Positions 46,658-53,713 of a DNA stretch of 55,058 nucleotides are shown here, one piece after another. Source of the stretch: a virus. Location of the stretch: IMG/VR virus record IMGVR_UViG_3300009285_000008; one strand, 5' to 3'. A model generated the notes under the pieces. It worked only from the letters and a program-made list of their open reading frames with translations. It had not been told where the DNA came from and did not search any database. The position numbers and the translations under genes are program-made. Every line of letters starts with the position of its first letter. Within the stretch, counting starts at the first letter, position 1.

Positions 46658-49600
46658 ACCACAAACTCTAAGGCACAGCGGCAATTTACGTGTAAGGGCG
46701 GACCATCCACCGCTCCGTAGTCGAACGTCATTGTAGCACCGTCGGCAGCCGTCAGCTTCGCGCCGGCCGCGTAGAACGGATCGTTCAGCCCTACGTCGCG
46801 GCCGTCAAACTCGGCGGCCGCGGCCTCGCAGAACGAACAGTTATGAGCCACAAGACCGCATGACAGCACGAATGAATGATCGTCCGCCACCTCAATGTCG
46901 TACACGACTCCCCGGTAAGCATTGACAGAGTGAACCAGTCGCGGTATAATAGCTCCATATTTACGTGCAAGCGGTGCGGCAGACGTTTTCATTCCGAACG
47001 ATGCAAGGCCCATTTGGCGCGCAATCCGCCGAAATACTGCTCGTGGGAATGCGTTAAGAATCGCGGCGGCAGCGGAGGCACAATCACATGCGAAGTGTGC
47101 GGCGCTATACGCAAGATATTCCCACGTGACACCGAGCGACGAGCCAGATTTTGCAGCTACAGATGCATGAACGTCGCCAGGCGCACCATAGCTTACGCTC
47201 CGCGGTTTACCGAACAGTCCTGCAAGTGGTGCCAGAAATCCTTTAGTTCCAAGTATTCCTACGAACGGCAATCGTATCACGAATGCTGTTCGCGGGCCTG
47301 CGCCGGCAAACTTCGCAGTCAACGCACCACCGGCCCCGCCAACAAACTCTGGTCTCGCGTAACGTGCATCTGCGCCACTTGCGGAAAATCGTTCCTGAAG
47401 TCCCGGTGCCGCGCTGCCATCAACTCCGGCAGAATGAGGGACTACTGTTCCCAGCACTGCAACATCATCGCCATCCACTCGAACAAAGACCGCACTGGGA
47501 TCGAGCGACGAATGGCTTCGATGCTTATCGCCGCCGGCATTGCGTTCGCTGAACAGGTACCCATGTACAGCCGGTGGATTGTTGATTTTGTGGTAGCGGA
47601 CTGGAAATTGATCGTGCTTTGCGATGGCCTGTATTGGCATTCCCGCCCCAAGGTTGCCGCAAAGGATCGCGGGCAAACCAACTATCTTCGCAAATGCGGC
47701 TGGAACGTTCTGCGTTTTACCGACAAGGAAATCGACGGCTCGCCCGATACATGCCTTACTCGCATACTCGCCTATGGACCGCCAGCCGACTGATGTGAGG
47801 AACCAATGATCGGGCGTCACAGCAAAGCCAGGGCCAAACACAAGCGGGCCATCATGCCAACGCGGACGAATGGCGGTAACGCGGCACGGCCGCCCACTGT
47901 GCCCTATCACGAAGTCGCCGACCACTAATCGCTCAATCGCCACGTTGCCCCGCGGAGTCGTCACTTGCGAACCGGCCACGAAGCATGCGTCGGGTGCGCC
48001 GACCCAACGTTTTCCAGTCACAACCCCGCTCGCGTCAGCGCCTGCGATCTGCCCTCGCACGTGGGCACGGGCCGACTCTGTACGCGCGATCATCTCGGCC
48101 CGGTTCGCAATCCCGTCGTCCGCAAACGCCGGCGAGTCCTCGATCCGCTGCCGAATCTCGTTGTAGGTCGCACCCTCCGATACGCCGCCCCGCACCACGT
48201 CCTGAATCTCGCGCGCCAGCGTCTCGTTCAACGAGCGGGCCAGCTTCGGTGTATAGTCGTCCAGGAACTGCATGACGCGCGGGTTCGTGGTGTTGAACGT
48301 CACACCGATATCGATGCCAGCCTGACGCGCTACGGCGGCGATCGTACGCTTGCCAGCCCCAGCCATAACCTCGCCCAGGCCGGCCGCCATCGCGCGCTGA
48401 AGCTCGCGCTCGTACCGGGCAATCGCGGCCTCTGCCCGTTTGATCGCGGCCTCTGCATCGTCGGCCACATCCTTCTGCGCCACATCCATCGCGGTCCGCA
48501 CAGACTCAAGCTGCCGGCCGAGTATCGCGGCAAGCCGGACGATCAACCGGCGGATCGGAGCCTCGGCCTCGTCGTCGCGAGCCGTATCGTCGGCGGCGCC
48601 CTTTGTTACAAATCTTCTACTATCGCGCGCAATAGCCGATGACTTGTAACAATCCAGCACCTTGATTGGCGCCACACCGTAGCCGCCGTTACCGTTACCG
48701 CCGACCGAAGTGCCGATCCTGAATAGTCCGCCCAGCAAATCGGTCGGCTGACCACGCGGCTCGTCACCGCCCTTCATCGGCGGCAGCCCCAGCTCGGCGC
48801 GCCGCTCGTTCACCGTCACGATACCCGCCGCGACGTTCTCGACGCCATGCTTATGCTCCTGCTCGATGTTCTCCGGCAGCGGGTTGTCGTAAGCCAGGAA
48901 GGCGTCATCCTCGATGCTATAGCGCGGCAGCATGCACTCGTTCAACCGCTGCTCGTCCATCGCGAGCATCGGGGCGATCGTGTTCATCAACCAACCGCGG
49001 TCCCCCTGCTCCGCGTTCGCGCGGTTCGGATCATTACTCTTGAGCATCGACATCGGGACGCCGAATACGCCGGCGATCTCTTCGAGCATCTCGGCCCGGC
49101 CCGCCATGTCCTTCGGCGGCCAACCGAGCGGCACGACCTCTGTATCGCCGCCAAGGGCCAGAAGCTTGCCGGCCTTGCGTTGACCGCGCAGCAGCTTGTT
49201 CATATCCGTCGCGTGCCGTTTCAATGCCACGCCATCCGTCACATTCTTGATGATGACCGCATAGTCGGGCCGGGCATTGTTCTGGTAGAGCGCCGTATCG
49301 TGCTCATGCATCGCTTCATTGAGCGGCAGCACGCCGGCCGCCGACGGTCCACAATACCAACCCGCCTCTACCTTGCCCATGCCATAGTGCAGGTCGCGCG
49401 GGTTAGGATACTTGAAATGATCTACCTCGTCCGGCTTGAACTCGCGTCTGACCGGCGTGTCGCGGCCATAGACGTATCCTTCGACGAACTGTCCACTGCC
49501 ACGTTCGCCCGGCACGATGTCCACCCACTGGGCCGGCATGACCCACAACTCAGACGGTATGCCGAGCCGCTGGTCGATGACGATATGCTGATAGGCATTA

Positions 49601-50073
49601 CCGGTGAGCTGCTGGTACACATGCCGCAAGGCCGTGAGCTGATATCCATTCTGCCACGGGTTGACGGTTTCGAGCAATGTCATCAACGGGTGCTGCTCGA
49701 CGACTTCCTCGTAGCCCTCCGGAATGTCGGTTGCGGCCTTGTACAGCACGTACCGACTCGGCTGTAGCTGAGCGTCGCCTACGAAGTACGCTTTTTGCCG
49801 GCGCGTCAATGGCCGGGTCGTGAAGAGCGGTGTGCGGCCGGACTGCTTGCGAACGAAGAGACGGAGCGGCTGGGCGGCCGCACGGTTCGCATTCAGCATC
49901 GTGGCGACGTAGACCCATGAGTTGAACTGCCGAACCGCCAGGTCATAGTTGAACGGCTTGAGCTTCGCCCCACGATATCCGTAGCCGTCGAGCAGGCTGA
50001 CGCTGCCGGTCAGATAGCGTTCGCGCGTGTACTGGGCCTTGGTTCGCACGGGGCGGCGCTTAGCCTTAATCAT
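46654..50073 (-). CDS. portal protein fused to a Mu F/SPP1 gp7-like minor head domain, interrupted by an intein
   Basis: 1139-aa ORF. The N-terminal roughly 480 aa are portal-like. The MuF-like part has NRAEMIARTESARAH ... and a C-terminal PPLHVNCRC. The intein spans aa 697-1078. Confidence 0.8.
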   Translation of the reverse strand: MIKAKRRPVRTKAQYTRERYLTGSVSLLDGYGYRGAKLKPFNYDLAVRQFNSWVYVATMLNANRAAAQPLRLFVRKQSGRTPLFTTRPLTRRQKAYFVGDAQLQPSRYVLYKAATDIPEGYEEVVEQHPLMTLLETVNPWQNGYQLTALRHVYQQLTGNAYQHIVIDQRLGIPSELWVMPAQWVDIVPGERGSGQFVEGYVYGRDTPVRREFKPDEVDHFKYPNPRDLHYGMGKVEAGWYCGPSAAGVLPLNEAMHEHDTALYQNNARPDYAVIIKNVTDGVALKRHATDMNKLLRGQRKAGKLLALGGDTEVVPLGWPPKDMAGRAEMLEEIAGVFGVPMSMLKSNDPNRANAEQGDRGWLMNTIAPMLAMDEQRLNECMLPRYSIEDDAFLAYDNPLPENIEQEHKHGVENVAAGIVTVNERRAELGLPPMKGGDEPRGQPTDLLGGLFRIGTSVGGNGNGGYGVAPIKVLDCYKSSAIARDSRRFVTKGAADDTARDDEAEAPIRRLIVRLAAILGRQLESVRTAMDVAQKDVADDAEAAIKRAEAAIARYERELQRAMAAGLGEVMAGAGKRTIAAVARQAGIDIGVTFNTTNPRVMQFLDDYTPKLARSLNETLAREIQDVVRGGVSEGATYNEIRQRIEDSPAFADDGIANRAEMIARTESARAHVRGQIAGADASGVVTGKRWVGAPDACFVAGSQVTTPRGNVAIERLVVGDFVIGHSGRPCRVTAIRPRWHDGPLVFGPGFAVTPDHWFLTSVGWRSIGEYASKACIGRAVDFLVGKTQNVPAAFAKIVGLPAILCGNLGAGMPIQAIAKHDQFPVRYHKINNPPAVHGYLFSERNAGGDKHRSHSSLDPSAVFVRVDGDDVAVLGTVVPHSAGVDGSAAPGLQERFSASGADARYARPEFVGGAGGALTAKFAGAGPRTAFVIRLPFVGILGTKGFLAPLAGLFGKPRSVSYGAPGDVHASVAAKSGSSLGVTWEYLAYSAAHFACDCASAAAAILNAFPRAVFRRIARQMGLASFGMKTSAAPLARKYGAIIPRLVHSVNAYRGVVYDIEVADDHSFVLSCGLVAHNCSFCEAAAAEFDGRDVGLNDPFYAAGAKLTAADGATMTFDYGAVDGPPLHVNCRCALEFVV
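46840..47985 (-). mobile_element. intein (382 aa)
   Basis: Starts with CFVAGSQVTT..GNVAIERLVVGD (block A). TPDHWFLT is block B. VYDIEVADDHSFVL is block F. GLVAHN followed by Cys+1 (CSFC) is block G. The exteins rejoin as GAPDA|CSFCEAA. Confidence 0.8.
46876..47793 (+). CDS. Vsr/DUF559-type endonuclease with four zinc-finger repeats, antisense inside the intein
   Basis: 305 aa. Four CxxCG..F...(15-20)..YC..(H/E)C units, then ERRMASMLIAAGIAFAEQVPMYSRWIVDFVVADWKLIVLCDGLYWHS..KDRGQTNYLRKCGWNVLRFTDKEI. Codon usage is more A/T-rich than the rest of the genome. Confidence 0.75.
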   Translation: MIVRHLNVVHDSPVSIDRVNQSRYNSSIFTCKRCGRRFHSERCKAHLARNPPKYCSWECVKNRGGSGGTITCEVCGAIRKIFPRDTERRARFCSYRCMNVARRTIAYAPRFTEQSCKWCQKSFSSKYSYERQSYHECCSRACAGKLRSQRTTGPANKLWSRVTCICATCGKSFLKSRCRAAINSGRMRDYCSQHCNIIAIHSNKDRTGIERRMASMLIAAGIAFAEQVPMYSRWIVDFVVADWKLIVLCDGLYWHSRPKVAAKDRGQTNYLRKCGWNVLRFTDKEIDGSPDTCLTRILAYGPPAD

Positions 50074-51707: not shown

Positions 51708-52039
51708 CGCACATACCTCCTGCCCTTTGGCGGCATTGTTACCGTCGGCATCCCGGTCGATACAGCGCAAATCCTGGTTTGGCTTCTCGGCTTATTCCAC
51801 TCGATCTGAGTGACAATCAGTGGAACTCGCGTAACCACGCCGGCGTCGTTGACCATGACCATCGTCGCGCCGGGTAACGGCGGACGGAACTCGATCACGC
51901 GGGGCACCTCGGCGACAACGTGGTATTCCGCCGGGCCACGGTCATCCCCCTCCCGCAACGTCGCCACGGCCGGCAACCGCACCAGGTCGGCGCCGCACCG
52001 AATCACGATGTGGCAGGGCCTTGTTCCGCTCAATCCCAC
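51701..52039 (-). CDS. hypothetical protein
   Basis: 112-aa ORF overlapping the terminase stop by 10 nt. Confidence 0.4.
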   Translation of the reverse strand: MGLSGTRPCHIVIRCGADLVRLPAVATLREGDDRGPAEYHVVAEVPRVIEFRPPLPGATMVMVNDAGVVTRVPLIVTQIEWNKPRSQTRICAVSTGMPTVTMPPKGRRYVRC

Positions 52040-53282
52040 GGTTCGCCCTCCATGCCTTCATCAACCTCTTCGCCACCGCCGATCAGCGCACACGCAAACC
52101 CACTGCTGATGCTCAAGCTGTGCCGTTTATGGGCGGCAAGGGCGAGGGCACATACACCGTCGTCAGTCATGCCGGGCACGCTTCGATACGTCACGCCTTT
52201 TTTGCCATACTCGAAGATAAAGCTCTCCAGCTCGCAAGTCAGCCAGCCGGCCTGGAACCGAATCTCCTGCCGCTGAATCGCGGCCGCCAGCCCTTCCATC
52301 AGTTGCTGTTTCGAGCGCGAGGTGAACGTATAGCCCTCGACGTTCGGGCATACCCTTTGCAACCGCTCGACAATCGGGTCGCCTACGCCGGTCGAGTCAA
52401 CCAGCGCGGGCACGTCTCTGATCGTATCGCCGATCCGTCTGCACGTCTGCTCCCAGTCACTCTGCCAGCGCTCTAGTGTAGCGACGTTCCCGCCCGCGTC
52501 TAGCCCGCACACAACGGTCCAGTCCTGGTGTTTGGCCAAGTCCACGCCGTAGCAAACCGGCTGTGTCCCAGCGTTGAACACGATGCAGTCGCGAATCGCC
52601 TTGAGCCCGAACGGGTTGCCGCCATCGTCGGCCGGGACGCCTTCGTATTCTTGAGCGAACACGGCGGGCGGCAGGTCACGGCGGGCAGCCTCTACCTCGG
52701 CCGAGTCGATCGCCGGGTTCGCGACGGTCGGGGCGCGGAACGACGCCCAGCCCTGGTCGGCGCGCGTTTCGCCGTAGCTCCATAAGCGGTGGGCGTAGCT
52801 GCGCCCGCGCGGCGTGAAGGCAAACCACGCATCGCCCTTCAGGTCGGTCAGCGTCGGGCGGATCGAATGTTCCCACGCCTCTTGCAGGTACGGCGCGATA
52901 CCGGCCTCATCGACGCACACACGCGCGTACTTGCGGCCGCGGCCGCACTTCTCCGGCTGCTCGAGCGACCAGAAGTCGATGCAACCACCGGTCAGGAGCC
53001 GTATCTGGCCCTCGGTCTTGTTGCTCTCGACGATCACGGGCGCCAGCAAGTCGGACAGGACGCGCCACTCTTGGACCATGAGCTGCCGAACGGGCGCGAA
53101 CCACGCGACCGGCTTGCGTTCTACGGCCGCCGTTATTGCTAGCTCAACTAGAAGGGTCGTCTTCACCCCCACCTCCTGCCGCACTCGATAGCGTTGAACC
53201 GCTTGGCGGCATTGAAGACGGCCTGCTGGCCGGGGTGAAGGCCGGGGAGTGGGATGGCTACGCGCCGAACCTCGCCGCTCAT
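52030..53282 (-). CDS. terL: terminase large subunit, two reading frames joined at a G5 run
   Basis: ATG 53282 (ATGA overlap with the small-subunit stop) opens MSGEVRRVAIPLPGLHPGQQAVFNAAKRFNAIECGRRWG, then TGA at 53163-53165. The rest (VKTTLLVELAI ... nuclease half YGVDLA..., STGVGD) continues in the -1 frame (track ORF 52030-53301). Confidence 0.75.
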
Positions 53283-53713
53283 GCGACCTCCTCGCTCTCA
53301 ATCAGCCGCGGCGCGACCGTGACGTGCTCGTGCCGGATCACGATCTCCAAAGGACCAGTCGGCTCGATGCGGTCGGCCAGCTTGCCGCACGTGCGATCGA
53401 GTAGGGCTTGCAGCGGGGTCGGCTTGCCGAGCGCGGCCGCAACGGCCCAGCCGATCGCACACACTTGCATGACCGTAGCGTCGGGCGGCAGGCCGTGCTT
53501 CTCGGCCAGCTTGGCGGTCGCCAAAAAGTCGCGCGCCGGGCGGTCCAGGTTCTCCATCAGGACGGTAACGGTGTTGCGCACCCCCTTCGGCCGGCCCTTG
53601 GGATTCGTGCAACTGCCCTTCAGCCACTTGCCGTTCGTGCTGTCGCGCAGGATGACCTGCTTGCGTTCCGGCTTGCCGTTGCCCGACTCGATGGGTTGTC
53701 CATTGTCACTCAT
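53279..53713 (-). CDS. small terminase-like protein (DUF5681-type)
   Basis: Part of ORF 53279-53749. ATG 53713 forms an ATGA overlap. CTNPKGRPKGVRN motif; position upstream of terL. Confidence 0.5.
   Translation of the reverse strand: MSDNGQPIESGNGKPERKQVILRDSTNGKWLKGSCTNPKGRPKGVRNTVTVLMENLDRPARDFLATAKLAEKHGLPPDATVMQVCAIGWAVAAALGKPTPLQALLDRTCGKLADRIEPTGPLEIVIRHEHVTVAPRLIESEEVA

Follow-up and report, generated by a model that had tools for sequence, protein, structure and literature searches.

How can one stretch of phage DNA encode, on one strand, a portal–MuF protein interrupted by an intein and, on the other strand and in the same codons, a homing endonuclease? The question arises in IMG/VR virus record IMGVR_UViG_3300009285_000008, a stretch of 55,058 nucleotides (hereafter the window) that represents the late region of a groundwater phage. 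Inteins are understood to carry their endonuclease as an in-frame domain, and the only alternative described is the split intein, in which the host gene is broken in two. At 46840-47985 the window very probably holds a third solution, a composite mobile element in which a self-contained endonuclease cassette sits antisense in the endonuclease-insertion loop of an intein, working by the mechanism proposed below. The endonuclease gene runs backwards through a continuous intein open reading frame (ORF), and a single rule lets both strands use the same codons: never TTA, CTA or TCA. The components are of known kinds; the architecture and the coding rule are new. A full-text literature search returned no account of an intein whose continuous ORF has an endonuclease gene antisense within it, an absence that is not proof.

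The intein in the portal–MuF gene

The minus strand encodes the portal–MuF precursor, whose parts are as follows.

46654..50073, minus strand: portal–MuF precursor ORF, 1139 amino acids with the intein (ORF listing; stop codon 46654-46656)
47986..50073, minus strand: N-extein, residues 1-696, portal and MuF up to ..GKRWVGAPDA (Pfam; junction alignment with P0004)
46840..47985, minus strand: intein, 382 amino acids, residues 697-1078, Cys1 ... His-Asn, then Cys+1
47794..47985, minus strand: N-terminal splicing part of the intein (intein residues 1-64, free of overlap with the endonuclease ORF), with block A CFVAGSQV and block B TPDH
46957..47793, minus strand: intein interior (the filler), intein residues 65-343, the endonuclease gene read antisense in codon alignment
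46840..46956, minus strand: C-terminal splicing part of the intein, 39 amino acids, ..IIPRLVHSVNAYRGVVYDIEVADDHSFVLSCGLVAHN, with blocks F and G
46657..46839, minus strand: C-extein, 61 amino acids, CSFCEAAAAEF...GPPLHVNCRCALEFVV, with the conserved MuF end GPPLHVNCRC (aligns with P0004, P0012 and P0013)
Junction of the intein-less MuF allele: ..GGCGCGCCCGACGCC|TGCTCGTTCTGC..

The precursor belongs to PHROG 2662, portal (1.9e-66), and its Pfam matches comprise Phage_portal at residues 119-429 (4.6e-38), Phage_Mu_F at 622-695 (9e-9) and Hint_2 at 697-735. All class-1 intein residues are present, namely C1, TPDH, block F VYDIEVADDHSF and VAHN followed by Cys, and they identify 46840-47985 as a 382-residue class-1 intein in the MuF part of the protein. 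The same splicing residues occur in inteins of six other contigs, three at the site occupied in the window (site a, GA|CxxC; L010, L011 and L132) and three at a second MuF site (site b, HPN|CRC; L026, L030 and L116). By alignment, the N-terminal splicing part (47794..47985) is conserved with respect to L010 and L011. The native protein scores 27.7 bits against Hint_2, just below the cut-off of 28.4; when the filler is deleted in silico the score rises to 31.4 bits, above that cut-off, and the C-terminal end matches Intein_splicing with 18 bits (E = 2e-3). In the site-b relative L026, a HINT profile match of 49.9 bits spans both intein halves.

A protein search with the MuF C terminus and intein as query matched exteins only, with no intein relatives, and was the source of an empty-site comparison. 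The intein-less protein P0004 (749 amino acids) is contiguous over the junction, ..GKRWGLAPGA|CEFCEAAAAQF.., and P0012 and P0013 likewise read ..APGA|CEFCEAAAAQF... The contig that encodes P0004, L084, has neither an intein nor an endonuclease gene near MuF. Two independent groundwater assemblies, L133 and L134, contain the portal–MuF gene of the window at 100% identity, which rules out an assembly artefact. Searched against GenBank phages at the DNA level, the gene gave no match.

The endonuclease gene on the opposite strand

The plus strand of the intein interior carries a complete gene.

46957..47793, plus strand: homing-endonuclease gene proper, 278 codons and a TGA stop (47791-47793), delimited by Pfam, homologues, alignment and model
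~46960-47463, plus strand: four CxxC...CSxxC zinc ribbons, making up the N-terminal two thirds
~47470-47772, plus strand: Vsr/DUF559/I-Bth0305I-like nuclease domain

The longest version of this ORF (46876-47793, 305 amino acids) matches the Pfam families DUF559 (2.6e-13), MTES_1575 (2e-10) and Vsr (4e-7), and a profile search against the PDB returns 3hrl (8e-9), 3r3p (4e-8) and Vsr (2.5e-4). In an AlphaFold model built on a four-sequence alignment the nuclease domain has a predicted local distance difference test score (pLDDT) of 80-90. Its best Foldseek match is 3r3p, the catalytic domain of I-Bth0305I (template modelling score 0.80, E = 4e-6), followed by Escherichia coli Vsr 1cw0 (E = 2e-5). 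The residues aligned with the catalytic site, Asp250, His255 and Asp264, are invariant among the homologues. As modelled, the plus-strand gene encodes a nuclease fold of the Vsr/I-Bth0305I type.

The opposite strand gives a different picture, with no Pfam family matched anywhere in the 270 residues of the minus-strand interior. The original prediction, made from the letters alone, is upheld on these points: the limits of the minus-strand ORF and of the intein with its splicing blocks, the conserved MuF end of the C-extein, a Vsr/DUF559-type nuclease on the plus strand (now seen by Pfam, PDB profile search and Foldseek) and a minus interior free of any endonuclease signature. The separate profile searches of the two translations that it proposed agree, placing the endonuclease on the plus strand and nothing in the minus interior.

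Endonuclease homologues of 233-242 amino acids occur in metagenomes (P0001-P0003), and mycobacteriophage genomes match query residues 69-305 at 29% identity. A scan of one genome per species gave two homologues, both distant. The distant homologues in mycobacteriophages and in L006 and L007 adjoin DNA methyltransferase genes, not MuF. The plus ORF lies almost exactly between the copies of a direct repeat of 26 nucleotides (46870-46895 and 47800-47825, 73% identical); the repeat is estimated to be at chance level, and we draw no conclusion from it.

Promoter and gene start

Two further plus-strand features lie upstream of the gene.

46922..46950, plus strand: sigma-70 promoter of the cassette, TTGACA-17 nucleotides-TATAAT, 12/12 consensus positions
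46876..46956, plus strand: in-frame upstream extension from ATG 46876, 27 residues, upstream of the promoter's predicted transcription start

The promoter is the sole promoter-like site in 46200-48300 (2.1 kb), and its -10 box ends 6 nucleotides ahead of codon 46957. It overlaps the start of the C-terminal intein part, and on the opposite strand its bases encode intein residues ..IIPRLVHSVN... The same geometry, a -35 box, 17 nucleotides, a -10 box and then 6-9 nucleotides to the start codon, is common to L010, L011, L132, L001, L003 and L009, which with the window makes seven cassettes. This conservation argues that the cassette brings its own promoter and that the endonuclease is probably translated from a leaderless mRNA. 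The site-b cassettes (L026, L030 and L116) and some free-standing copies have a Shine-Dalgarno sequence instead. No terminator is predicted downstream of the endonuclease gene.

We place the gene at 46957-47793 because ATG 46876 precedes the promoter, because the 27 residues that it would add have no counterpart in homologues, and because residues 1-21 of the longer ORF model poorly (pLDDT < 50). ATG 46876 is probably not the true start, and 46876..46956 probably not part of the endonuclease. The 305-residue ORF first described does exist, complete with four zinc repeats, but its start moves to 46957. The overlap with genuine intein sequence claimed for both ends of the gene is real at the 3′ end, in the SVGWRSIGEY segment; at the 5′ end, the overlap with block F belongs to the upstream extension only.

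The conserved start position, 46957-46959, reads ATG in six relatives and ATA in the window; on the intein strand this codon is Tyr, and in L010 and L011 it is His. All three independent assemblies of the window phage show ATA; since two independent groundwater assemblies have the identical sequence, the ATA is not a sequencing error. The endonuclease of the window copy may therefore be silent or weakly translated.

Codon register and coding constraint

The codons of both ORFs start at coordinates congruent to 1 mod 3. In a codon-aligned antisense frame stops arise only from TTA, CTA and TCA, and the host frame is open through the cassette because the cassette never uses these codons: there are none among its 13 Leu and 27 Ser codons. 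Across this region the intein frame has 0 stops, and the other two minus frames have 9 and 11. From the gene's own codon usage 3.8 antisense stops would be expected (P(0) = 0.018). A-ending codons make up 0/33 of Leu and Ser codons in the window gene versus 19/112 in the other four-fold families (p = 0.005).

Pooling the intein-embedded genes sharpens the result (Leu/Ser 0/147 versus other four-fold families 89/520; p = 8e-8 at site a and 4e-4 at site b). In L116, which has a GC content of 37%, 12.7 antisense stops are expected and 0 are seen (P = 6e-8). Distant AT-rich homologues show no avoidance, with A-ending codons in 87/177 Leu/Ser positions versus 143/380 in other four-fold families.

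Across six copies, the ratio of nonsynonymous to synonymous differences per site (pN/pS) is 0.43-0.57 in the endonuclease frame, where synonymous sites are saturated, and 0.83-1.13, about 1.0, in the antisense (intein) frame. Zero stops together with a pN/pS near 1.0 in the filler imply that the interior is kept open, not kept as protein. The window filler is rich in Ala, Gly and Val (30% Ala plus Gly) and mildly hydrophobic. Its first ~15-20 residues (SVGWRSIGEYASK...) are probably still part of the intein fold, as judged by comparison with a mini-intein.

The original prediction fares well on the coding side too. The shared codon register and the free use of other A-ending codons in the plus gene are confirmed, and the absence of TTA, CTA and TCA holds, with a codon total of 40 rather than about 35. 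The substitution-pattern check that it proposed finds constraint on the plus frame only, and the proposed search for an empty site led to P0004, with its uninterrupted ..APGA|CEFCEAAAAQF.. junction.

Recurrence at two MuF sites

The endonuclease, the intein halves and the filler served as queries in searches of viral and metagenome contigs. The antisense-in-intein layout was checked at the DNA level in seven divergent contigs: the window, L010, L011, L132, L026, L030 and L116. At site a, the antisense endonucleases of L010, L011 and L132 are 40-47% identical to that of the window and the minus ORF is open throughout. At site b, L026, L030 and L116 carry an antisense DUF559-type gene with a different N-terminal region, and again the frame is open. 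The open frame thus holds over copies 40-47% identical in protein, with GC contents from 37% to 58%. Stop codons in the minus frame of relatives, which had been named beforehand as the sign of a split intein or a dead gene, occur in none of L010, L011, L132, L026, L030 and L116. Among the endonuclease-found contigs with the gene antisense between intein halves, there was no counterexample with a broken frame.

A search of 1.84 billion proteins with the filler found five long site-a MuF proteins with filler-like interiors (P0016, P0018, P0019, P0020 and P0023); P0019 is the L132 protein, and the other four are known at the protein level only. Compared across these contigs, the layout forms a family that recurs, occupying two sites in MuF. 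The arrangement was unfamiliar when first noted, and we have likewise found no published description of it; it is no one-off.

Mobility and likely origin

The contigs L010 and L011 offer a close comparison. Their exteins are 100% identical, and their intein plus endonuclease are 43-87% identical, with the drop in identity at the intein borders and, towards the N-extein, a short flank over which it is graded. The pattern, which is that expected of allele replacement with co-conversion, indicates that intein and endonuclease behave as a mobile unit.

Empty, mini-intein and intein-plus-endonuclease states are all found at the same MuF sites. Empty sites occur in P0004 and in the MuF genes of L001, L003 and others, and L131 carries at site a a homologous mini-intein of 133 amino acids with no endonuclease. 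L010 and L011 each have a second intein at site b (L010 4287-4694 and L011 2633-3040, both minus strand), a mini-intein of 132 amino acids without endonuclease (HPN|C...VHN|CRC); the inteins of L026 and L030, which do bear an endonuclease, are its homologues. In L001, L003, L009, L012 and L014-L016 the site-a cassette is free-standing, directly behind a MuF gene that has no intein and in every instance convergent with that gene. Large conventional inteins with a zinc ribbon and a Vsr/EDxHD-type nuclease (LKIAIECDGEYWH) in frame and in sense orientation occupy site b of MuF-like proteins in L089 (215-2374, plus strand), L098 (2408-4600, plus strand) and about fifteen other contigs (L090-L104, L108, L110, L113).

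The MuF relatives supply natural intermediates for how endonuclease genes and inteins unite: empty site, mini-intein, free-standing gene, sense fusion and antisense insertion. The element probably arose by recombination, when a mini-intein already in place received a free-standing gene whose target was the 3′ region of MuF, a route of the kind termed collaborative homing.

Comparison with known systems

Canonical large inteins, including those of L089 and L098, share with the window element a conserved site in an essential gene, endonuclease DNA between the splicing parts and presumed homing. The in-frame site-b inteins of L089 and L098 even match the antisense L026, L030 and L116 in nuclease type and host site. 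The difference is that here the endonuclease is a separate opposite-strand gene with its own promoter, start and stop, and the intein insert is its unconstrained antisense translation.

Group I introns of nuclear ribosomal DNA can have an endonuclease gene on the antisense strand. As in the window, a self-splicing element then carries its mobility gene reversed. Such introns need no avoidance of antisense stops because the intron interior is untranslated, whereas the interior of an intein must stay open.

The I-Bth0305I/EDxHD family (Taylor et al. 2011, PMC3239194) has the same modular plan, in which the N-terminal region binds DNA and a Vsr-like nuclease forms the C-terminal part. The gene for I-Bth0305I lies in a group I intron, however, and the window protein has four zinc ribbons in place of NUMOD-type modules and IVLCDG in place of IEVDG.

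In collaborative homing, as summarised by Edgell et al. (2010, PMC2988022), a free-standing endonuclease gene adjoins an endonuclease-free intron or intein. The free-standing MuF neighbours and the endonuclease-free mini-inteins at the same sites correspond to the precursor states of that model; the merged product is antisense here, an outcome that the model did not anticipate.

Proposed mechanism and alternatives

As read directly from the sequence, the late-gene reading frame passes through the complementary strand of the cassette. The ribosome would make a precursor with ~280 unconstrained, Ala/Gly-rich residues between the intein halves, which would associate and splice in cis, joining ..GAPDA to CSFCE.. 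to yield a 757-residue portal–MuF protein and releasing intein and filler. The sigma-70-type promoter of the cassette would give rise to a leaderless endonuclease mRNA, probably at an early stage and through the host polymerase. The endonuclease would then cut intein-less MuF alleles of co-infecting phages, and repair would copy the intein and endonuclease gene together. In the window copy the endonuclease is possibly silent, and the intein would still have to splice.

Two predictions follow. An intein should be able to splice over ~280 residues of unselected sequence, which is relevant to engineering inteins with inserts. The early endonuclease mRNA should be fully complementary to the late structural mRNA, and the two may regulate each other's expression by mutual antisense action. 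Gene callers, for their part, choose one strand in such a region and thereby break the host gene or miss the endonuclease.

Several points weigh against this interpretation. Splicing with a 280-residue unstructured insert, endonuclease activity, the target site and the transcription start are all inferred. Pfam support for the site-a inteins is modest (Hint_2 31 bits; Intein_splicing under the cut-off), and a single-sequence AlphaFold model of the intein alone is uninformative (pLDDT 31), so the fold of the filler and of the intein halves cannot be judged from it. The ATA start makes homing by the window copy doubtful. The four MuF proteins known at the protein level only come from gene calls, which report open frames only, and serve as examples rather than as an unbiased test. 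Finally, the window protein has Leu (IVLCDG) at the position of the EDxHD family's Glu, two residues before the Asp. This position is Phe or Gln in other site-a copies, and Glu is kept in the site-b copies (IECDG). In Vsr itself the residue is Phe (Dassa et al. 2009, PMC2677866). With the Glu missing, we class the window protein as Vsr/DUF559-like rather than as a strict EDxHD member.

The alternative that survives best, improbable though we consider it, is a split intein whose halves are made separately, the second from an internal start (for example, the Met in ..RQMGLASFGMKTS..), and trans-spliced, with read-through of the filler being incidental. It has a documented precedent in "fractured genes", in which a Vsr-like or GIY-YIG endonuclease gene lies between split-intein halves that trans-splice (Dassa et al. 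2009, PMC2677866), and in-frame Met codons do lie upstream of the C-terminal intein part. The two systems share the Vsr-like family, own expression signals, a phage or metagenomic setting and the notion that an endonuclease gene invades an intein. Fractured genes, however, consist of two ORFs, whereas the window ORF is continuous, with an endonuclease gene that is purged of antisense stops and occupies the other strand in codon register. The ORF runs unbroken through the cassette in the window, L010, L011, L132, L026, L030 and L116; with no stop ending the N-terminal half in 7/7 DNA-checked cases, translation would by default yield the full-length precursor. For a C-terminal fragment, neither a conserved ribosome-binding site nor a conserved start is seen, and if the halves were translated independently, nothing would be gained by the strong selection against antisense stops.

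A shade less probable still is a decaying relic, in which the element is non-functional, the open frame is left over from a recent insertion or inversion, and portal–MuF is broken or the phage defective. The ATA start codon would fit, as would the window's own statistics, since zero antisense stops in this copy by itself has a P of just 0.018. Against decay, the splicing residues are all intact, as are the nuclease Asp, His and Asp, and the gene is 100% identical in three assemblies. Neutral decay cannot explain an open frame over copies 40-47% identical that range from 37% to 58% GC.

We give even less credence to an invertible segment or a one-off in-situ inversion of an in-frame intein nuclease domain. 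In the homologous site-b inteins of L089 and L098 a nuclease of the same type is indeed read in frame and in sense, and the codon alignment of the two frames is compatible with an inversion. The cassette, however, has its own promoter or Shine-Dalgarno sequence, start and stop, and the stop, if flipped, would cut the host protein short. Inverted repeats on its flanks measure just 12-15 nucleotides, are imperfect and have the frequency expected by chance, and there is no invertase gene nearby. The closest site-a relatives are free-standing genes of the same promoter and leaderless architecture, pointing to the insertion of a ready-made gene.

That the plus ORF is a chance antisense ORF and the minus interior a real divergent endonuclease or linker domain is scarcely conceivable and is refuted, common as long codon-aligned antisense ORFs are in GC-rich DNA, by the DUF559 match (2.6e-13), the free-standing homologues, the I-Bth0305I/Vsr-like fold and the amino-acid constraint in the plus frame, as well as by a minus interior that matches no family and evolves neutrally at the amino-acid level.

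Free-standing copies

The composite element at MuF has a parallel outside inteins. The free-standing copies avoid antisense stops as well (8/165 versus 124/649, p = 9e-7), and all eight of their antisense stops fall within the last 33 codons of the endonuclease gene. The stop-free antisense ORFs opposite them are listed here.

L009 78-881, minus strand: stop-free antisense ORF
L012 4818-5828, minus strand: stop-free antisense ORF
L014 4683-5579, minus strand: stop-free antisense ORF
L015 4674-5618, minus strand: stop-free antisense ORF
L016 419-1363, minus strand: stop-free antisense ORF
L003 3025-3711, minus strand: further stop-free antisense ORF
L001 540-1220, minus strand: further stop-free antisense ORF

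These ORFs are 227-337 codons long and begin just past the MuF stop, which in L001 and L009 is in the same frame. They end at or near the start of the next late gene, with a TAATG overlap in L016, an ATGA overlap in L009 and a gap of a few bases at most in L012, L015 and L003. Gene callers have annotated such antisense products (P0017, P0022 and P0024-26).

A tentative reading, which we find plausible without favouring it, is that this endonuclease clade may have evolved antisense-transparent coding to live reversed in translated DNA, with host ribosomes passing through it either as an intein linker or as a translated bridge in a late operon. Between late genes, the antisense ORF would serve as a bridge, maintaining translational coupling and preventing polarity. 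A stop-free antisense strand could also have been the pre-adaptation that let the gene enter inteins backwards without breaking them.

Genomic context

Further genes of the late region lie on the same strand as portal–MuF.

53710-54939, minus strand: ParB-methyltransferase
52030-53301, minus strand: large terminase
44812-45765, minus strand: prohead-protease-like gene
40291-41709, minus strand: major capsid gene

The ORF at 53710-54939, which adjoins the terminase gene, fuses a ParB-like N-terminal domain to an N6/N4 DNA methyltransferase. Rfam detects no RNA family at threshold anywhere in the window; a tRNA-like gene lies at 13393-13466 (plus strand), to which ARAGORN assigns no anticodon. 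Between the prohead-protease-like and major capsid genes are a transposase-like ORF (42047-42985, minus strand; PHROG 4285, 1.5e-10) and an ORF of 257 amino acids (43203-43976, minus strand), and the segment 42047-43976 looks like an insertion into the head-gene module.

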